In this document: one piece after another, positions 30,000 through 55,394 of the stretch
How positions within the stretch are numbered: the stretch's first letter is position 1
Layout: every line of letters starts with the position of its first letter
Assembly: GCA_021817985.1 (NCBI GenBank)
Contig: JAKAFK010000003.1
Span: 7,136-71,135, forward strand
Reading direction: 5' to 3'
Source of the DNA: Pseudomonadota bacterium
GTDB lineage: Bacteria > Pseudomonadota > Gammaproteobacteria > Burkholderiales > JAKAFK01
Length of the DNA stretch: 64,000 nucleotides
Notes under the pieces: model-generated
The model's database searches: none
What the model was told of the DNA's origin: nothing
What the model saw: the letters and a program-made list of their open reading frames with translations, nothing else
Position numbers and translations under genes: made by a program

Positions 30000-31217
30000 A
30001 TGCACGAGCATGCCTACATTGGTCGCCAGCCGATCCTGGATCGCAACCAGCGCATCATCGGCTATGAGCTGCTGTTCCGGCACCACGCCACAGCCACCAC
30101 GGCGGAGGTCACCGACGACCTCTCCGCCGGCACACAAGTCATGATCAACACCCTCAGCAATCTGGGCACCGAGTGGCTCCTCGGCGACAAGATGGCCTTC
30201 ATCAACATTGCCGAGCCCATGATGCAAAGCGACTTCCTCGAGTTGCTGCCGCCCGAGCGCGTCGTGCTGGAAATCCTCGAAAGCGTGGCGTTCACGCCCG
30301 AACTCTTCGAGCGGGCCAAGGCATTGCGCGCACAGGGGTTCAAGCTGGCCCTCGACGACTATGTCCCCGGCCCCGATACGGCCGACTGGCTGGACGTGGC
30401 CGATTTCGTCAAGCTCGACGTCCAGGACCTGGGCCCCGCCCGAACGGCGGAAATGGTCACCCTGCTGCGCCGGCACAAAGCCAAGCTGGTCGCCGAAAAG
30501 GTCGAAACGCACGGCGAGTTCAAGGCCTGCAAGAACCTCGGATTCGATTACTTCCAAGGATTCTATTTCGCGCGTCCTGAGACGCTTGCCGCCAAGGTCC
30601 TGAATCCCGCCCATGCCAATGTGCTGCAACTCCTGAACCAGGTACGCAACAATGCCGACGTGAAGGACATCGAGACCGCCTTCAAGCGCGACGTGGCGCT
30701 TGCCTTCAAGCTGCTGCGCTACATCAACTCGGTGGGTTTCGGCCTGTCGTGCGAGATCCAGTCGATCCGGCACGCCGTGGCCATCTTAGGCTACCAGCAG
30801 CTCTATCGGTGGCTGACGCTCCTGCTGGTGACCGCCGAGACCTCCGACGCCACCCCGCCCGCCCTGATGAAGACGGCCATCACCCGCGGGCGCCTGACGG
30901 AACTTCTGGGCCAGCCGTTCTTCGAGCGGCAGGACCGCGACAACTTGTTCATCGTCGGCGTCTTTTCCCTGCTCGACGCGATGCTTGAGATGCCGATGGA
31001 CAGCGTGCTCGAGAAGCTTTTGCTGCCGGAGACGATCCAGGACGCGTTGCTGACCCGCTCCGGCATGTACGGCCCCTTCCTCGGACTGGCGGAGGCATGC
31101 GAAGGCGCTCAGGAAGACGAGATCAACGCGATTGCCGAATCCTTGTCCCTCGAACCCGATGCCGTCAACCAGGCGCACATGGAGGCGCTGGCTTGGGTCG
31201 AAACGCTGGGGGTCTGA
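30000..31217 (+). CDS. EAL-HDOD domain protein (putative c-di-GMP phosphodiesterase, YuxH/CdgJ-like)
   Basis: IGRQPI..GYELLFR, LALDDY, VKLD, LVAEKVET, FQGFYF, then HDOD KRDVALAFKLLRYINS. Confidence 0.88.
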   Translation: MHEHAYIGRQPILDRNQRIIGYELLFRHHATATTAEVTDDLSAGTQVMINTLSNLGTEWLLGDKMAFINIAEPMMQSDFLELLPPERVVLEILESVAFTPELFERAKALRAQGFKLALDDYVPGPDTADWLDVADFVKLDVQDLGPARTAEMVTLLRRHKAKLVAEKVETHGEFKACKNLGFDYFQGFYFARPETLAAKVLNPAHANVLQLLNQVRNNADVKDIETAFKRDVALAFKLLRYINSVGFGLSCEIQSIRHAVAILGYQQLYRWLTLLLVTAETSDATPPALMKTAITRGRLTELLGQPFFERQDRDNLFIVGVFSLLDAMLEMPMDSVLEKLLLPETIQDALLTRSGMYGPFLGLAEACEGAQEDEINAIAESLSLEPDAVNQAHMEALAWVETLGV

Positions 31218-31223
31218 CGGCGG

Positions 31224-31676
31224 TCAGAGAAACTCGGGCGCGAGCACCAGTCGGAGCAGGGTCTGGGCCTCGTTGTCCCGGACGCGATAGGTGAGCCACC
31301 AGACGCCCGCCTTCTTGACGCCCCAGGGGGCCGCCGCGCCGGCGAGAACGAGGGAAGCCACCTCGCCGAGGGTGGGCTGATGGCCCACGACGACGACCGC
31401 CCCCTTGGCCTTGGGCCACCCTGCCGCCTTGAGGATTTCGGCAGGTCCGGCGCCCGGGCCCAGCTCAGGCCGGGTCTCGATGGGCCGCTTGAGCGCGAGC
31501 GCGGTCTCCTGCGCACGACGCGCGGGGCTGACAAGGATGCTCACCGGGACGGGCAGCCTGGGCGCCAGCCAGCGCGCCATGGCCGCCGCCTGCGCACGGC
31601 CCTTGTCGGATAGGGCGCGCTCCATATCGGGAACGCCGTCTTGCGCTTCGGCATGACGCCATAGGATCAAATCCAT
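31224..31676 (-). CDS. sixA: Phosphohistidine phosphatase SixA
   Basis: MDLILWRHAEA, SPARRAQETA, VVGHQPTLG. Confidence 0.88.
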   Translation of the reverse strand: MDLILWRHAEAQDGVPDMERALSDKGRAQAAAMARWLAPRLPVPVSILVSPARRAQETALALKRPIETRPELGPGAGPAEILKAAGWPKAKGAVVVVGHQPTLGEVASLVLAGAAAPWGVKKAGVWWLTYRVRDNEAQTLLRLVLAPEFL

Positions 31677-31680
31677 CGAA

Positions 31681-31910
31681 CCGTTCCTAATCCATCGGCG
31701 ATAATCAGTTGATGGGTCACCACGGGACATCTTCCCCGCAGTCGCAGCCCGAACAGTGCTGGCTGCTCGCGTGCCGGAGTTGCGCCGGCAGGCCCCGGTG
31801 AGCGCCCGATGCGAGGGACTCTGGAGACTGTTTTTCCAGAGGCCGCAAAGGCGCCGGTTCCCCTCGGCGCACTCCTATGCGAGTGTGAGGGATCCCGGAC
31901 CGGGAACGCG
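31681..31910 (-). ncRNA. Predicted omegaRNA/reRNA scaffold of element 1, overlapping the tnpB 3' end
   Basis: Stems at 31692-31715, 31744-31766, 31772-31790, 31819-31841 plus possible long-range CGTTCC/GGAACG pairing; position at the right end is where TnpB guide RNAs are encoded. Confidence 0.55.
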
Positions 31911-33672
31911 CTACATGCGGCGCTCTCATCACCGAGCGGATCGAGGACCATTGTGACCACACGGGCTTCGCGCGATTCCTTGCAGGTAGCGCAAAGGCGA
32001 CGTGGCCACCGTCGCGGCACGGCGATAACGCCGCACGCGCCTCGGGGGAGGTTTTGGCCTCCGATCCTTCCGGTGTTGAATTCGTTTGCGTCTTGCTTTT
32101 CTTCTTGCGCCTGAGTGGCATGGTATAGATGCCTCCTGCGCTCTTGTTCGCTTGCCGAAGCCGCTCGGCAAAGCCCAGCCCGCGCCGGGCAATGGCCATC
32201 GCGGCGGCCTGGTGCACGCTTAGCCCGAGGGGTTGGGCGTGATTCACGGCGCCGATGACCGAGGTATACGCCGGATTGACTTCCAGCACCTCGACGCCGG
32301 CACGATGGCAGGCCGCATCCAGCATCGCAAGGGCCTTACCGTAGGCAAAGCTGGAGAGCATGCGGGCGTGCCGCGGGTTGCTCCCTTCGAGATCGCTTTT
32401 CTTCTTGCCAAAGTCCAGCCTCTCGTGCACGACCGGCACACCATGGGTGCGGGCGATCCCCGCAATCTCCTTAACGGAGTCCCCCATCATCGCTTCGACC
32501 TGCTCGGACGATTTTCCGTAGGTTGGCACGTCGAAGCGCACACTGTCGACCCAGTTGCCGAAGCGATCGATCCGGGTCACCGCGAGATGATCCGCATTGA
32601 TGTCGATGCCCAGGGCGCCAGCCAGCTTGGAAGTTGTCGCCGTGGCGGTTTCCACGGCAAGGCTTGCGAACACCCGCCAGCCCTTTCCGTCGCGCATGAA
32701 GCGGTAGCTGATCGCGGTTCCGGTGCGCTTCATGACGGGCTGCCCCGTCTTCGTGAGACCCTCTATCCGGCACGACGCATTCAGGGCTTCGACGATCTTC
32801 TCGTGCCCATAGGCAAAGCGCACGCCCGGGACTTCGACATGGCTGCCGTGCGGGGGCAGGAGGCATCTCGGCAGGCGCACACGCAAGGTCAGGGAGCCAT
32901 CCGTGGCCCGTGTGGCCACGCAGCCCTGGCACCCCGCCGTCTCGTCCTTGCTTCCCAGGACGAGGAACTGAGAGGAGCGCGCCGCGCGCCAATCCACAAG
33001 CCAGGCATCCCGGCCGGCTGCAGCAAGTTCCTCCTGGCGGCGGGTGCGCCCTGACTCTTCAAGGAGGGCGCTCGCGGCATCCCATTGAGCGCCATCGACA
33101 TAGCCGTTCGCCACGAGATCGAACTGGGCGCGAAAGAGCCTCTTCGAACCGAAGCACAGGCGGATGGCGCCCGCCTCGTGATCGTTCTTGAGGTTACCGA
33201 GGCGATCTTCCCTTGTTTTGAGCCGGCGCTTCTTCTGGTGCAGCTTGTGTGCGGCTTTGGCAATGGCGCGCCGGCGCTCGGACTCGCTCATCGGCTTGAC
33301 CGCGCGTCCGGATTTGAAGGCAACCAAGGGGTCTTGCAGGTCCTGAAGGCGCTGTTCGATCTTGCCGATTGTCTTCTTGGCCCGGCCAATGCGTGCCTCC
33401 GCTTCGAGAATAAGATCCGGGCGGCGCTTCCTGATCGAATCGATCTTCCCGTCCAAGCCGATCTTGATGGCGTTGTACTGCCGGGCGGTGAGGCCAAACT
33501 CCTGGAGAAAATCGCGCTTGAGGGTATTGGTGTCGCGGCCATCGGCTTGCCTTGCGGCGAAGAGGCTACGCTCCGCGCGCCCGAACAGCGCCGCGTAGGC
33601 AGCCAGCGCCGCATCGACCGCCGGATCTGGCTCAAGGCGCGTTTGGTAGGTGAATGTCTTTGCGTCAGGCAT
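31717..33672 (-). CDS. tnpB: Large TnpB-related RuvC protein (651 aa), no Zn finger, RuvC-III His
   Basis: TYQTRL N-terminus, LCFGSKRLF, GSKDETAGCQ, RuvC-I LGIDINADH, RuvC-II VVHERLDF, VNPAYTSVIG, SVHQAAAMAIARRG; ATG overlaps tnpA stop. Confidence 0.85.
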   Translation of the reverse strand: MPDAKTFTYQTRLEPDPAVDAALAAYAALFGRAERSLFAARQADGRDTNTLKRDFLQEFGLTARQYNAIKIGLDGKIDSIRKRRPDLILEAEARIGRAKKTIGKIEQRLQDLQDPLVAFKSGRAVKPMSESERRRAIAKAAHKLHQKKRRLKTREDRLGNLKNDHEAGAIRLCFGSKRLFRAQFDLVANGYVDGAQWDAASALLEESGRTRRQEELAAAGRDAWLVDWRAARSSQFLVLGSKDETAGCQGCVATRATDGSLTLRVRLPRCLLPPHGSHVEVPGVRFAYGHEKIVEALNASCRIEGLTKTGQPVMKRTGTAISYRFMRDGKGWRVFASLAVETATATTSKLAGALGIDINADHLAVTRIDRFGNWVDSVRFDVPTYGKSSEQVEAMMGDSVKEIAGIARTHGVPVVHERLDFGKKKSDLEGSNPRHARMLSSFAYGKALAMLDAACHRAGVEVLEVNPAYTSVIGAVNHAQPLGLSVHQAAAMAIARRGLGFAERLRQANKSAGGIYTMPLRRKKKSKTQTNSTPEGSEAKTSPEARAALSPCRDGGHVAFALPARNRAKPVWSQWSSIRSVMRAPHVARSRSGIPHTRIGVRRGEPAPLRPLEKQSPESLASGAHRGLPAQLRHASSQHCSGCDCGEDVPW

Positions 33673-34164
33673 CGCTGGTAATGGCGTCGACTGCCTTCCG
33701 GGCCTTGTTCCGGGCCGACCGGCGCCCATGCAGGCGGGCACAGAAGGAGGTGAGCACTTCAATTTCGGCACCGAAGCGCATCAGGCGGTCGCGGTGCTCC
33801 ACGACGATGGCGGTGACCGCCGGGTCGGAGAGCAGCTTCATCAGCCTGGGCCTGTGACCATTGAGCCCGGAGCCGACTTCGGCTGCGGTGCGCACGACCA
33901 CGAGGCGCTGCGATGCCGCATGCGCAGCCAGCCGCCAAGCCGCGCGTCAAGGTCGTTCTTCTGGTCGGAAGACGACACCTGGGCATAAAGCGCCGCGCCG
34001 CCCGCCGGCGAGGCTTGATCGTCCAGCGTGACGAATACCGCGCCAGTCGGCGTCTGAAACGCCGGCACGGGCAGATTGCCGTCGTGCCACCATTTCCATG
34101 CCGTTTGGTAATGGACCCCCATCAGCACAGCCCATTCCTTCAGCTTCAGCGGCTTCGTTGTCAT
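33665..34164 (-). pseudogene. tnpA: IS607 serine transposase TnpA, frameshifted and internally deleted
   Basis: N-half KEWAVLMGVHYQTAWKWW..ALYAQVSSSDQKNDL; frameshift near 33932-33937; C-half EVGSGLNG..IVVEHRDRLMRFGAE/IEVLTSFCARLHGRRS lacks about 32 aa relative to the tnpA at 53575. Confidence 0.9.
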
Positions 34165-34252
34165 ACTGAATACAGCATAGCCGACCTATGCCAATTGCAA
34201 CTGACTTATTACGAACCTGCTAGAATCCCACTCCGCGCGTGAGCGACAGGGC

Positions 34253-34846
34253 CTACCAGCCGTGGCCGCGAATCTTCTCGAGCCAGAATAGGCCGATGAC
34301 GGTCTTGGTTTCCGAGATCCTGCCCGTGCGCACCCATTCCATGGCCTCTTCTTGCGACACTCGGAAGCTCTCGACGAACTCGTCCTCGTCCGGACGGGCA
34401 CCCTCGAAGGAAAGCCCTGTCGCCAGAAAGAACTCCAGCCGCTCGTCGGAGTATCCGATGCACGGATGGATGCGGGTCAGCCGGCGCCAATGGCCGGCCG
34501 AATAACCGGTCTCTTCCAGGAGCTCGCGCCGTGCACAGGCGTCGGGCGACTCATGGGCTTCGAGCTTGCCGGCGGGAAACTCGTAGAAGACGCGCCGCAG
34601 CGGATAGCGGTATTGCCGCTCGAGCAGCACATCGCCGTTGTCGAACACGGGCAGGCACACCACGGCGCCCGGGTGCACGATGTATTCGCGGGTCGCTTCA
34701 TGGCCGTTGGGAAGGCGCACCCGATCTTCCCGAACGTGGAGAAGCCGTCCATGATAGACCGTCCGCGAGGCGAGCTCCGACTCGCTCAGATCCGTTCCGT
34801 GCGCGGCCCCTCCATCGGGCTCGCCCGGGGTCGGCTCATCACTCAC
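34253..34846 (-). CDS. NUDIX hydrolase (ADP-ribose pyrophosphatase-like)
   Basis: Nudix box FPAGKLEAHESPDACARRELLEETGY; REYIVHPGAV; GTG start overlapping DUF2818 stop. Confidence 0.9.
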   Translation of the reverse strand: MSDEPTPGEPDGGAAHGTDLSESELASRTVYHGRLLHVREDRVRLPNGHEATREYIVHPGAVVCLPVFDNGDVLLERQYRYPLRRVFYEFPAGKLEAHESPDACARRELLEETGYSAGHWRRLTRIHPCIGYSDERLEFFLATGLSFEGARPDEDEFVESFRVSQEEAMEWVRTGRISETKTVIGLFWLEKIRGHGW

Positions 34847-35144
34847 CGGCGCGTCGTCGCCACAGATAACGGTAGACGAAGCCCGGGTAGGCGAACACCA
34901 GAAACAGGCAGGCAGTGACCACATAGAAGATCCATTGCTGCTTCGCCACGGCGCCTAGCTGCGCCTCAAGCAGACGGGCGACCCCGCCCACGACGAAATA
35001 CAGGGCCACCAGTTCGAGGAGTCGCCAGCCCAGCGCCTTGCGGCCCGAGCGCGGGCGACGAACGAAAAACACGCGTTCATTGAAGAACGGTAGGTTGGCG
35101 GCGAAAAGCGCCAGGGCCAGCAGCAAGGTGGTATTAGAGCTCAT
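34839..35144 (-). CDS. DUF2818 family membrane protein
   Basis: AANLPFFNER, WRLLELVALY, FAYPGFVYRYLW; usual position after nuoN in Betaproteobacteria. Confidence 0.85.
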   Translation of the reverse strand: MSSNTTLLLALALFAANLPFFNERVFFVRRPRSGRKALGWRLLELVALYFVVGGVARLLEAQLGAVAKQQWIFYVVTACLFLVFAYPGFVYRYLWRRRAGE

Positions 35145-36593
35145 TTATAATGAATGCCAGATCGAATAAGTGCACAAGGCCATCAGCGGCTGGGGCAAGA
35201 TGCCCAGCGCCAGCACGGCCAGCCCGTTTGCGCTCATGAGAACCCCCACGTCCGCGTGCGCGCGACATGCGGACGGGTCGCTGGGCGCATCGAAATACAT
35301 GAGTTTCACGATGCGCAAATAATAGAACGCGCCGACCACGGAGAACAGCACCGCCGCGACGACGAGGCCCACATACCCCGCATCGAGGGCGCTGGAGAGC
35401 ACCGCGAGCTTCGCATAGAATCCGGCCGTCGGCGGAATTCCCGCCATCGAAAACATGAGGATGAGCATCAGGAAAGCGTACCACGGGCTGCGCTGATTGA
35501 GTCCCTTGAAATCATCCAGATGTTCCGCCTCGAAACCCTGCCTTGACAGCAGCATCACCATGCCAAACGCGCCCAGGCTCATGAGCACGTAGACCAGAAC
35601 GTAGAACATGGCGGCGCCGTAGCCTTGCAGGTTACCGCTCAGGAAACCCAAGAGCACGAACCCCATGTGCGAAATCGTCGAATACGCCAGCATGCGTTTG
35701 ATGTTGGATTGCGCGATCGCCGTGATGTTCCCGATGGCGATGGACAATACCGACAGGATCACCAGCATGCCGGACCAGTCGTGCGCCAGCGGCTGCAGTC
35801 CGCCCGCCAGCAACCGGATCACGAAGCCGAACGCCGCGATCTTGGGGGCCGTGCCGATGAACAGCGTCATCGCGGTCGGGGCGCCCTGGTAGACATCGGG
35901 CACCCACATATGGAACGGCACAACCCCCAGTTTGAAGGCGAGCCCCGCGACCAGGAACACCAATCCGAACACCAGCACGGTGTGGTCCTTCACGCCATGC
36001 GCGAGAACGCCGGCAATCCCGCTCAGATCGAGATGGCCGGTCACGCCATAGACCATCGACATGCCGTACAGCAGAAGCCCGGAGGCCAGAGCCCCCAACA
36101 CGAAGTACTTGAGGGCAGCCTCGGTGGCCACCGCCGAGTCGCGCGAGAGCGCCACCAGCGCATAGAGGCACAGCGCCTGCAACTCGAGCCCCAGGTACAG
36201 CGCCAGGAAATTGCCGGCCGAGATCATGATCATCATCCCTAAGGCCGCGAACAGCACCAGCACGAAGAACTCTCCCCGGAACAGGCCGCGCACCTGCAGG
36301 TACGACTTCGAATAGACCAGCATGGCCGAGATGCTCACATAGAGCATGAGCTTGAGCACATCGGCGACGGGGTCTTCGATAAACAGGCCGTGAAAGCCCG
36401 TCACGGTTTCCCCGTGCGCGCCTTGCGCGGTCAGCAGCACGGCCCCGAGCAGCGTCAGTTGCGTCGCCGCATAGGTGACGAATCGATGGCGATCCGCGAT
36501 GAAGGCATCGACGAGGAGAATGAGCGAGCCCATGCACAGGACGAAGATTTCCGGGAGCATGGGTGCGAGATCGTGCCAGCTAACAAGGCTCAT
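35145..36593 (-). CDS. nuoN: NADH-quinone oxidoreductase subunit N
   Basis: [41 protein letters not shown]. Confidence 0.96.
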
Positions 36594-53478: not shown

Positions 53479-53574
53479 CCGCCCCCGAAGGCATCGCTTC
53501 GCCAAGCTGGCCTCAGGGTTTGAACAGTTACATGAATAATTGCGCGTTCTTGCGCAATGATGTATATCCTGAAC

Positions 53575-54204
53575 ATGCCACGCAGGAGGGTCAGCATCCA
53601 TGAAGCCGCCGAGTTCCTGGGCGTTGCAGCGCAAACACTGCGGCGATGGGAGCGCGAAGGCAAACTCATTCCCGACGAGCGCACGCCGGGCGGGCGGCAG
53701 CGTTACGACCTTGCGCGGCTGCGTCCCGACCAATTCCACGCGGAGGAAGCGTCGCGTCGCACCATCGCCTACGCTCGCGTGTCCAGCCACGACCAGAAGG
53801 ACGACCTGGAACGGCAGAAGCAGGTGCTCGAACGCTACTGCGCCCGTCAGGGCTGGACGTTCGAGGTCATCGCCGATCTCGGCTCTGGCATGAATTACCA
53901 CAAGAAGGGACTCACGCGACTGCTCGATGCCGTCATCGACGGCGAGAGCGGGCGGCTGGTCATCACGCACAGGGACCGGCTGCTGCGTTTCGGCGCGGAA
54001 CTGGTGTTCGCCATCTGCGAGGCCAAGAACGTCGAGGTGGTGATTCTCAACCAAGGCGAGGACACGACCTTCGAGGAAGACCTCGCCAAGGACGTGCTGG
54101 AGATCATCACCGTGTTCAGCGCCCGGCTGTACGGCAGCCGCTCGCGCAAGAACCGGAAGCTGCTCGAGGGCGTGCGGGCCGCCGTGGAGAATGCCGCATG
54201 CTGA
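53575..54204 (+). CDS. tnpA: IS607 serine transposase TnpA
   Basis: MerR-like HTH (SIHEAAEFLGVAAQTLRRWE..TPGGRQRY), IAYARVSS catalytic motif, THRDRLLRFG, FSARLYGSRS. Confidence 0.95.
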   Translation: MPRRRVSIHEAAEFLGVAAQTLRRWEREGKLIPDERTPGGRQRYDLARLRPDQFHAEEASRRTIAYARVSSHDQKDDLERQKQVLERYCARQGWTFEVIADLGSGMNYHKKGLTRLLDAVIDGESGRLVITHRDRLLRFGAELVFAICEAKNVEVVILNQGEDTTFEEDLAKDVLEIITVFSARLYGSRSRKNRKLLEGVRAAVENAAC

Positions 54205-55394
54205 TCGCCCATCGCATCGCGCTCGACCCGAACAATGTCCAGGCGACATACCTTGCTCGTGCGGCGGGCACGGCGCGGTTCGCTTACAACTGGGCATTGG
54301 CCGAGTGGAAGCGCCAGTACGGGGCGTGGAAGGCCGACAACGCTTTGCCCAAGCCCTCGCAGGCCGCGCTGCGGCGGCAGTTGAACGCGATCAAGCGCGA
54401 GCGGTTCCCGTGGATGCTGGAAGTGACAAAGAACGCGCCGCAGATGGCGATCATCCAGTTGGGACAGGCGTTCCAGAATTTCTTCGCGGGCCGCGCCCGC
54501 TATCCCGCCTTTCGCAAGAAAGGCGTGCACGACCGCTTCACGCTCACCAACGACCAGTTCGACATCGACGGTTCGCGCATTCGCATCCCCAACCTTGGCT
54601 GGGTGCGCATGCGCGAGACGTTGCGCTTCCAGGCCAAGATCATGTCGGCCACGCTCTCCCGTGTGGCCGACCGCTGGTTCGTCAGCATCGCCGTGGACAC
54701 ACCCGATAGCTCGCATCTGCCCAAAGCCAAAAACCAAGGCGAGGCCGGTGTCGATCTGGGGGTGTCGGCGCTGGCGACGCTCTCGACGGGAGAAACGATC
54801 CCTGGGCCGAAACCCCACAAGGCGCTGCTGGACCGCTTGCGCAGGCTCTCGCGGAGTCTGTCGCGCAAGGTTAAGGGATCGGCCAACCGCCGCAAGGCCA
54901 AGGCCAAACTGGCGAAGCTGCACGCCCGTATCGCCGCAGTCCGCTCGGACGCCCTGCACAAGCTCACCACAGACCTCACGCGCCGGTTCCACACCATCGG
55001 CATCGAGGACCTGAACGTGCGCGGCATGGTGAAGAACCGCCACCTGGCCCGCTCCATCGCCGACATGGGCTTCTTCGAGTGCAGGCGGCAACTGGAGTAC
55101 AAGGCGGCGATGCGCGGCGGGCGGGTCGTGGTCGCTGATCGCTTCTTTGCGAGCAGCAAGACGTGCTCGACGTGCGGGCACAAGCTGGGCGATCTGCCGC
55201 TGTCGGTGCGCGAATGGACGTGCCCGGCCTGTGGTGTGATCCACGACCGTGATGTGAATGCGGCGGTGAACCTCAAGACCATGGCCGTGAGTTCCACGGT
55301 CCCAGCCTGTGGAGAGGATGGCTCTGGCTCGGGTCGCAAGACCCGAGTGAAACCAGCCTCGGCGAAGCAGGAAGTCAGCTTTGTTCCTGTTTAG
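54198..55394 (+). CDS. tnpB: RNA-guided endonuclease TnpB (398 aa, canonical)
   Basis: GTARFAYNW, RuvC GVDLGV / IGIEDLNV / HDRDVNAAVNL, Zn finger CSTC..CPAC. Confidence 0.95.
   Translation: MLIAHRIALDPNNVQATYLARAAGTARFAYNWALAEWKRQYGAWKADNALPKPSQAALRRQLNAIKRERFPWMLEVTKNAPQMAIIQLGQAFQNFFAGRARYPAFRKKGVHDRFTLTNDQFDIDGSRIRIPNLGWVRMRETLRFQAKIMSATLSRVADRWFVSIAVDTPDSSHLPKAKNQGEAGVDLGVSALATLSTGETIPGPKPHKALLDRLRRLSRSLSRKVKGSANRRKAKAKLAKLHARIAAVRSDALHKLTTDLTRRFHTIGIEDLNVRGMVKNRHLARSIADMGFFECRRQLEYKAAMRGGRVVVADRFFASSKTCSTCGHKLGDLPLSVREWTCPACGVIHDRDVNAAVNLKTMAVSSTVPACGEDGSGSGRKTRVKPASAKQEVSFVPV

Follow-up and report, generated by a model that had tools for sequence, protein, structure and literature searches.

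The 651-aa open reading frame at 31717..33672 (minus strand) of the 64,000-nucleotide stretch of DNA that was analysed (the window) is probably the tnpB gene of a tnpA-defective copy of an IS607-family element, which encodes a TnpB protein of clade RIIIr-4 together with its omegaRNA, and not a gene domesticated by the host. Judged by its sequence, the protein is a member of this described major clade and not a new kind of TnpB. The copy is best described as a non-autonomous element, still under or just released from element-level selection; the intact TnpA of a paralogue may be able to mobilise it.

The protein and its clade

The frame is open over 31717..33771 (minus strand) and the ATG at 33672 yields the protein of 651 aa (MPDAKTFTYQT...), in agreement with the start found within the family. 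A GTG start at 33771 (684 aa) was considered and dropped, as the homologues begin at the position of the ATG. The three RuvC residues that had been proposed from the sequence alone were all found: i) D357 in RuvC-I (GIDINADH; codon at 32602..32604, minus strand), on strand one of the RNase H fold in the model; ii) E417 in RuvC-II (VVHERLDF; 32422..32424, minus strand), at the end of model strand E414-417 and inside the match to the NCBIfam model NF040570 (aa 387-487); and iii) H487 at the RuvC-III position (SVHQAAAMAIARRG; 32212..32214, minus strand), where the model starts helix 486-498 after beta-5. Within a set of 115 diverse representatives these residues are kept in 113 (D357), 113 (E417) and 111 (H487) cases, N359 in 114 and E503, a candidate fourth residue, in 107; the window protein itself retains 45 of the 45 residues that are conserved in at least 90% of the representatives. 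That D, N, E and H are kept throughout the clade speaks for a site that does chemistry, which at a minimum would be RNA processing. The zinc finger is absent, as had been noted: the CxxC..CxxC pattern is missing from the protein and occurs in 0/114 representatives, and the zinc-finger half of the Pfam Cas12f1-like TNB model is lacking, because the match covers only model positions 1-28 of 60. A His4 metal site in the tail (549-595) was also tried and dropped, as only H570 is broadly conserved (86/115 representatives) and the window copy has Pro at that position.

The protein exceeds the canonical TnpB of the same window (398 aa; 54198-55394) by 253 aa, in line with the ~250 aa given in the sequence-only reading, but the norm of its own family is itself already ~542 aa. 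The extra length over this norm comes from three lineage-specific insertions of ~38, 27 and 48 aa, which are also present in the paralogue, and 7 aa are unique to the window copy. Matches to TnpB-type profiles are confined to the RuvC region. The NF040570 score was 46 bits (cut-off 100) versus 315 bits for the canonical copy, a sub-threshold value that results from the divergence of the clade, and the domain model TIGR01766 was the only one passed (35.4 versus 32). The AF2 model (pLDDT 79, confident for aa 1-505) has the order WED-REC-WED-RuvC and its best Foldseek matches were Cas12f, Cas12m, Cas12g and Cas12e (E = 1e-7 to 1e-6), with further matches to Fanzor2, TnpB and RuvC (TnpB 8H1J, E = 1e-2); the predicted Cas12/TnpB-type WED-REC-RuvC fold thereby backs the earlier description of the protein as a TnpB relative. 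A PDB sequence search with the 651-aa protein returned chance coiled-coil matches only, and hhalign against a single canonical TnpB sequence gave a low-probability alignment, in which RuvC-I was correctly aligned and RuvC-II misplaced. For the comparison with canonical TnpB, the order of the predicted strands and the HMMER match were used instead. In beta-5 the protein has NPAYTS, the counterpart of the canonical xPxxTSQ.

Of the five major TnpB clades, RIIIr-4 is the one defined by the replacement of the RuvC-III Asp by His and the loss of the C4 zinc finger (Altae-Tran 2023, PNAS, PMC10691335), so the family was indeed already known, as had been supposed, and carries a name. Its size is 4117 clusters at 50% identity. 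A tested and labelled member is orthologue 39 of Nocardiopsis dassonvillei (Nety 2023, CRISPR J, PMC10278001), the omegaRNA of which was processed, but which was negative in an IVTT dsDNA TAM screen (PMC10278001). BLASTP of the window protein against the first 399 aa of orthologue 39 gave 27% identity over ~300 aa (E = 9e-15). No RIIIr-4 member is known to cleave DNA; with the one tested member of the clade negative in the dsDNA TAM screen, guided dsDNA cutting by the window protein is a candidate activity only.

The probable omegaRNA and its predicted guide

The structured RNA that had been noted as overlapping the C-terminal tail proved to be real: the last 240 nt of the window copy fold with a z-score of -3.0 and covariation within the family is strong. 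RNAalifold, applied to 23 loci, yielded 35 pairs, with compensatory changes in 26; 92.9% of the cells were paired versus 34-45% in slid controls, and the observed values were reached by 0/500 shuffles. The scaffold region of tnpB also has a lower dS and more conserved third codon positions. On the basis of covariation and fold z-score, the 3' part of the omegaRNA-like scaffold was located at 31681..31900 (minus strand), in and just past the ORF; the full scaffold probably extends upstream to ~32350, as estimated from the scaffold of orthologue 39, which measures 466 nt (PMC10278001).

Several hairpins could be delineated. Helix 6 (UGCCGG-loop-CCGGCA; 31772..31790, minus strand) has 100% of its cells paired and 5/6 pairs covary. 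In helix 7 (GCAGCC-AGCACUGUUCG-GGCUGC; 31744..31766, minus strand) 6/7 pairs covary; this hairpin codes for a 'conserved' SQHCSGC peptide and is located after the stop codon in loci with shorter ORFs, and is therefore an RNA element and not a protein motif. A terminal hairpin (CCAUC...GAUGG; 31692..31715, minus strand) is found in the MFE fold just before the end motif and shows weak covariation with the paralogue (CUAUC...GAUAG), two sequences being compared. The tail is conserved family-wide and is no read-through unique to the window copy; its far C-terminal part owes its conservation mainly to the omegaRNA hairpins embedded in it, and the 'conserved' C-terminal peptide is largely a translation of these hairpins.

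The omegaRNA 3' end AGGAACGG is common to the window copy and orthologue 39. The reverse complement of the reverse-transcription primer of orthologue 39 reads ...CACTGTTCAGGAACGGT, so that its omegaRNA terminus according to the primer is ...CAGGAACGG, the same as in the window copy, which ends ...GGATTAGGAACGG at 31681. Conservation of the end motif AGGAACGG extends across phyla. A permissive Rfam scan of 30500-35500 gave no match.

The omegaRNA guide is the DNA immediately past the right end of the transposon (PMC10278001, PMC13565253). From this rule and the drop in conservation, the predicted guide corresponds to the flank TTCGATGGATTTGATCCTAT (31661..31680, minus strand) and would cover the start codon of sixA (31676-31674). 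The sixA gene most likely starts at 31676, outside the tnpB ORF, so that the two frames would not overlap.

The element, its ends and its broken tnpA

The whole IS607-family element spans ~2.55 kb (31681..34229, minus strand) and has a NUDIX hydrolase gene on one side and sixA on the other. The right end at 31681 was set by the family-wide terminal motif ...TTAGGAACGG, beyond which the copies diverge, and it is precisely there that the DNA contigs from run X1 break off. The left end (34226-34229, ~3 nt uncertainty) was placed by similarity to the family start GGGTTGCCAACAG and to the paralogue (L008), and both ends look intact; an empty site that would prove the boundaries was sought in metagenome contigs and none was found. 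IS607 elements terminate in GG, beside GG in the target (PMC13565253), and the window copy follows this rule, with ...AACGG at the right end and a left flank that ends in GGG in every locus examined. Three positions ahead of the junction, every left flank carries G and the right end C, a contrast that could let the complex tell target from self.

The tnpA pseudogene (IS607 serine recombinase, a type with an N-terminal HTH; 33665..34164, minus strand) was compared by tblastn and nucleotide alignment with the intact 195-aa tnpA of L008, which revealed a 1-nt deletion near 33934 (a -1 frameshift) and the in-frame loss of 87 nt at 33764/33765; in addition, the YARVSS catalytic motif carries R->Q. 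The sequence-only reading was right in calling tnpA broken, but in place of its three lesions, two structural ones are counted against the intact paralogous gene, with the R->Q substitution in addition. The NCBIfam model NF033518 matches both tnpA fragments, each below the cut-off. The ATG of tnpB overlaps the stop of tnpA (ATGCCTGA) and translation of tnpB looks coupled to that of tnpA via this overlap; with the tnpA frame broken, expression of tnpB may therefore be reduced.

The copy had been called immobilised, a label that is too strong given that the paralogue, which is 72% identical and has an intact tnpA, resides at a different locus in the same assemblies and could act in trans. The dN/dS of tnpB versus this paralogue is 0.27. 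Several genomes hold multiple copies of the family, tnpA lies directly upstream of tnpB in most family loci and is intact in 37 of 73 related loci, and the neighbours differ in every family locus.

The sequence-only reading suggested, as one option, a nuclease-attenuated, RNA-guided binder retained by the host, analogous to the TldR repressors. In this scenario the host would have kept TnpB and its RNA after the decay of tnpA, with sixA as the obvious candidate target. The combination of an intact tnpB with two indels in tnpA, the predicted guide spanning the sixA ATG, the AGGA that the right end supplies 8 nt upstream of this ATG, and the failure of orthologue 39 to cut dsDNA could all be cited for such a role. 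However, a guide over a flanking gene follows automatically from the insertion site, the locus occurs in one organism only with the nearest relative (72%) elsewhere and with its tnpA intact, the family is multi-copy and mobile, and both transposon ends are retained. Moreover, D, E and H are kept clade-wide, unlike the decayed sites of TldRs, and binding to the element's own right end would need a TAM there, where a C is present at the position that holds G in all left flanks. We therefore consider retention by the host most improbable. A broader version, in which the D-N-E-H site of RIIIr-4 TnpBs only matures the long omegaRNA and the proteins are RNA-guided binders that do not cut dsDNA, so that the window copy, with its guide over the sixA start codon and a right end that supplies the ribosome-binding site of sixA, could have become a regulator of this gene, is in our estimation very unlikely.

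The intact tnpB might also be that of a functionless remnant, i.e. of an element that died so recently that tnpB has stayed intact for want of time. The chance that both indels hit the 0.59-kb tnpA and not the 1.96-kb tnpB is ~0.05, which is not compelling for selection, and relative-rate tests, although underpowered, were non-significant for tnpB (29 versus 22 changes, p = 0.40) as well as for tnpA (7 versus 2, p = 0.18); for these two reasons the argument for selection from an intact tnpB beside a lesioned tnpA is weak. Decay would also fit the substitutions H570P and A585P at well-conserved positions, and the contigs of the mine-drainage metatranscriptomes from the same study, none of which covers the locus, gave no RNA evidence. 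Against this stand the full retention of the 45 most conserved residues, a number of deviations from the family consensus (19) that is close to that of the tnpA-linked paralogue (18), and the intact right-end motif and RNA hairpins. Furthermore, 27 of the 73 loci combine an intact tnpB with a tnpA that is broken or missing, versus 6 with the reverse, in a sample that is biased toward intact tnpB. Taken together, we regard a dead remnant as rather unlikely.

Proposed explanation and significance

Under the preferred reading of a tnpA-defective IS607 copy that carries an RIIIr-4 TnpB and its omegaRNA, tnpB would provide a D-E-H RuvC protein without zinc finger and with an enlarged helical REC lobe, and the omegaRNA scaffold would be formed by the last few hundred bases of tnpB and 36 nt past the stop, ending ...UUAGGAACGG at the right end. 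By analogy with other TnpB systems, TnpB would bind and trim the omegaRNA, the flank-derived 3' extension of this RNA would, once the element has excised, direct the complex to the vacated donor site, and homologous repair would then restore the element. If the Asp-Glu-His site is active, it would extend the range of chemistry known for Cas12/TnpB-type enzymes and make zinc-finger-free editors conceivable, possibly with G-rich TAMs. The window copy is an ordinary representative of an already described group and adds little alone.

Comparison with known systems

The closest likeness is to the RIIIr-4 clade itself. The window protein shares with orthologue 39 the change from Asp to His at RuvC-III, the absence of the C4 zinc finger, the RuvC-I motif GVDxNADHLA and a very long omegaRNA over the 3' third of the gene with the same final motif; and, as in the clade at large (~530-550 aa), it has a long helical REC lobe. 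It differs in that its identity to orthologue 39 is only 27%, its sub-branch has three extra insertions (651 aa) and no functional tnpA is left in the window copy. The partner in the window is an IS607 serine recombinase, whereas members associated with RHH/MazE are also mentioned for the clade (PMC10691335).

With the canonical IS607 TnpB of the window (53557-55394) the element has in common the order of tnpA, overlapping tnpB and 3' omegaRNA, as well as the GG termini, and with both this protein and ISDra2 TnpB (PDB 8H1J) the RuvC-I Asp, the RuvC-II Glu and the WED-REC-RuvC fold. Canonical TnpBs are, in contrast, ~400 aa long and carry CxxC..CxxC and DRDxNAA, and the REC of the window protein is about twice as long as theirs. 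The TldRs are likewise TnpB-derived and, like them, the window copy has no working partner transposase; yet D357 and E417 are present and H487 is the clade state, whereas the RuvC sites of TldRs are decayed or truncated, and TldRs are non-mobile and tied to one target gene, whereas the RIIIr-4 family is multi-copy with varying neighbours.

Finally, a His serves as metal ligand at the last catalytic position in the PIWI domain of Argonaute (DEDH) and in other RNase H-fold nucleases, and sites of the Argonaute type show that D-E-H can be catalytically competent. Argonaute is an unrelated protein, in which there is a fourth acidic residue, for which E503 is the candidate in RIIIr-4.

The tnpB gene and its product

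The tnpB open reading frame was called at 33771..31717 on the reverse strand, and the ATG at 33672, which is the start position common to all homologues, yields a protein of 651 aa. The motifs quoted in the sequence-only reading were all found: GIDINADH with the RuvC-I Asp (D357), VVHERLDF with the RuvC-II Glu (E417) and SVHQAAAMAIARRG with a His at the RuvC-III position (H487). The protein indeed has no CxxC..CxxC zinc finger, and the statement that it is 250 aa longer than a canonical TnpB is correct, because the TnpB of the canonical, apparently intact IS607 element in the same window (53557-55394, forward strand; TnpA 53557-54204, TnpB 54198-55394) has 398 aa. The latter protein contains the CxxC..CxxC zinc finger and the sequence DRDVNAA (NF040570, 315 bits), and its TnpA partner comprises 215 aa (NF033518, 214 bits). 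The curated models recognise only the RuvC core of the 651-aa protein: NF040570 scores 46 bits over aa 387-487 (cut-off 100), TIGR01766 is marginally over its cut-off and the Pfam TNB model matches with the first 28 of its 60 positions alone, so that the zinc-finger half is missing.

The AlphaFold model, which had 120 homologues as input, has a pLDDT of 79 and is confident over aa 1-505. It predicts, in this order, a strand, a long helical lobe that includes a helical hairpin (63-113/130-167), a beta-barrel and an RNase H fold; within the latter, strand 1 carries D357, strand 4 ends with E417 and the helix that comes next begins with H487. The best PDB matches retrieved by Foldseek were Cas12f, Cas12m, Cas12g, Cas12e, CasLambda, Fanzor2, TnpB and bacterial RuvC. 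With respect to the 542-aa norm of its relatives, the protein carries three insertions, of ~38 aa (extending the helical hairpin), ~27 aa (in the REC lobe) and ~48 aa (after the RuvC-III helix), all of which are common to its closest relative, the paralogue P0002 (72% identity, 666 aa); beyond these, 7 aa are private to it.

The putative omegaRNA and the C-terminal tail

The structured RNA that had been proposed to overlap the tail, i.e. the putative omegaRNA that would serve as guide scaffold for TnpB, was borne out by covariation. An RNAalifold structure predicted from the aligned terminal 220 nt of 23 elements comprised 35 pairs, 26 of them with compensatory changes. In this structure 92.9% of cells were paired, versus 34-45% when the partners were slid by 1-3 columns, and the covariation score was 0.59 versus ~0.1 in the slid controls; none of 500 shuffles attained the observed values. 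The region in the window has a more stable predicted fold than shuffled controls (z = -3.0), and its hairpins at 31772-31790 and 31744-31766 (reverse strand) are intact. Rfam contains no model for the RNA. The 7-aa private insertion (IPHTRIG...; ~31855-31880, reverse strand) is matched in the RNA by a small additional hairpin (CACUCGCAUAGGAGUG) within a covarying helix.

The apparently conserved peptide ...NRxQHCS... is the translation of a hairpin with loop AGCACUGUUCG, and in relatives with a shorter reading frame (loci L041, L056, L072, L075, L080 and L089) the hairpin CGAAUCGU..CACUGUUCG..ACG lies 3' of the stop codon. The same hairpin is translated in some loci and found past the stop in others, and therefore the length of the reading frame varies over a fixed RNA element. 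Identity at codon positions 1/2/3 was about 0.61/0.64/0.40 in the protein core versus 0.66/0.66/0.54 and 0.60/0.60/0.52 in the tail, dS with respect to the paralogue was reduced to 0.3-0.4 in the tail, down from 0.6-0.8, and the pLDDT of the tail was below 50. Given these data and the position of the hairpin, we attribute the conservation of the far C-terminal tail mainly to the embedded RNA; aa 549-595 (GGHV..ARNRAK.VW..W) may matter as protein as well.

Element ends

Copies within the same genome are identical through ...TTTTAGGAACGG, ~31 nt past the stop codon, and diverge beyond it; this terminus is present in all sub-branches. In the window the terminal motif places the right end at 31681 (reverse strand), followed by the flank TTCG-ATG(sixA). 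Contigs of X1, a DNA sequencing run of the source mine-drainage metagenome, break exactly at 31681, which points to another copy with a different flank. The matches of these contigs are restricted to 31681-31727 or 31727-31766 and diverge beyond, so that this other copy in the community has terminal 47-85 nt that are at least 95% identical. The left end (34229-34216, reverse strand) reads GGGATTCTAGCAGG and is paralogue-like, other copies starting with GGGTTGCCAACAG. The GG termini agree with the IS607 rule (PMC13565253). Three positions before the junction, the left flank has a G in 13/13 loci, versus invariably a C at the right end (AACGG), which suggests to us, by inference, that target (TAM about GGG) may be told from self at this position.

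State of the copy and its relation to the host

Directly upstream of tnpB lie the fragments of tnpA, encoding an IS607 serine recombinase (33841-34164 and 33665-33901, reverse strand). With the tnpA of the paralogue (195 aa, intact) as reference, they lack 1 nt in one deletion and 87 nt in another, and they carry an R to Q change in YARVSS. The start codon of tnpB and the stop codon of tnpA overlap (ATGCCTGA), an arrangement suggestive of translational coupling, with which the tnpA frameshift may interfere.

The earlier observation was confirmed with small corrections, and its interpretation was supported in part. The dN/dS of tnpB versus the paralogue is 0.27, and tnpB in the window deviates at 19 family-conserved columns versus 18 in the tnpA-linked paralogue. 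In relative-rate tests acceleration of tnpB was not significant (29 versus 22 changes, p = 0.40), and tnpA gave 7 versus 2 changes (p = 0.18). That tnpB remained under selection once tnpA had died is suggested and not more than that, because there are only two indels and the probability that both land in tnpA is ~0.05. Of 73 related loci, 27 combine an intact tnpB with a tnpA that is broken or absent and only 6 show the reverse, in a sample that favours intact tnpB. Immobilisation is not established, because the same assemblies (GCA_028064455.1 and GCA_027349375.1) contain, between recQ and a lysR/RuBisCO cluster, a paralogous element (72% identical; loci L008-L011, e.g. L008:5436-8037) whose 195-aa tnpA is intact, which makes it conceivable that the element is mobilised by TnpA supplied in trans.

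The called start of sixA, downstream of tnpB, is at 31676, and the element was inserted 4 nt upstream of this start codon. Its right end, UUAGGAACGG (31674-31691, reverse strand), carries a Shine-Dalgarno-like AGGA 8 nt before the sixA ATG. Because of this AGGA and the position of the end, the translation signals of sixA would now be element-derived, and its transcription probably so. For a TnpB domesticated and retained by the host we found nothing in favour except the intact reading frame: the sixA start falls within the predicted guide simply as a result of the insertion 4 nt upstream of that codon, the locus is known from one organism only and the neighbours of the relatives are unrelated.

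Conservation and clade membership

A word-indexed search recovered >3333 relatives with a typical length of 542 aa, and an exhaustive profile search yielded 4117 clusters (50% identity) at E <= 1e-3 and 1234 at E <= 1e-30. Among 115 diverse representatives, D357 was kept in 113, N359 in 114, E417 in 113, H487 in 111, R496 in 113 and R497 in 111, and a search for CxxC..CxxC among them found no carriers. The window protein retains all 45 positions that are >= 90% conserved; the only broadly conserved position with a notable loss is 570 (codon 31963-31965, reverse strand), Pro here and His in 86/115 representatives and in the paralogue. E503 (codon 32164-32166, reverse strand; motif GLGxSER, 16 aa past H487) is kept in 107/115 and is a candidate for a carboxylate that would compensate for the Asp to His change. 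In most loci of the relatives an IS607 tnpA lies directly upstream of tnpB, and many copies per genome occur, for instance in Verrucomicrobium sp. 3C, Verrucomicrobia LP2A, Ca. Aalborgicola and a Chlamydiae MAG (six near-identical copies in the latter). The clade is a mobile IS607 lineage across Proteobacteria, Verrucomicrobia, Chlamydiae, Nitrospirota and Chloroflexi.

Altae-Tran et al. 2023 defined five major TnpB clades and inferred the activity of one of these, RIIIr-4 (RuvC-III Asp to His, C4 zinc finger lost), from conservation (PMC10691335). Nety et al. 2023 assayed a single orthologue of RIIIr-4, the 529-aa protein of Nocardiopsis dassonvillei, which had a clear omegaRNA processing site and a 466-nt scaffold, the longest among the 59 orthologues assayed; the TAM screen, which reads out cleavage of dsDNA, gave it the score 'N' (PMC10278001). 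The window protein is tied to this clade because it aligns with the Nocardiopsis orthologue (27% identity over ~300 aa, E = 9e-15) and with a second representative of the same study (including NPAWTSVIG...KVHEAAA...GRRGLG), and because the Nocardiopsis omegaRNA, as read from the reverse-transcription primer (PMC10278001), ends in ...CACUGUUCAGGAACGG(U), the same terminus as that of the window element. Judged from its sequence, the element is a tnpA-defective IS607 copy with a RIIIr-4 TnpB and its putative omegaRNA. RIIIr-4 as a kind is already known, and the window protein would be one further member of it.
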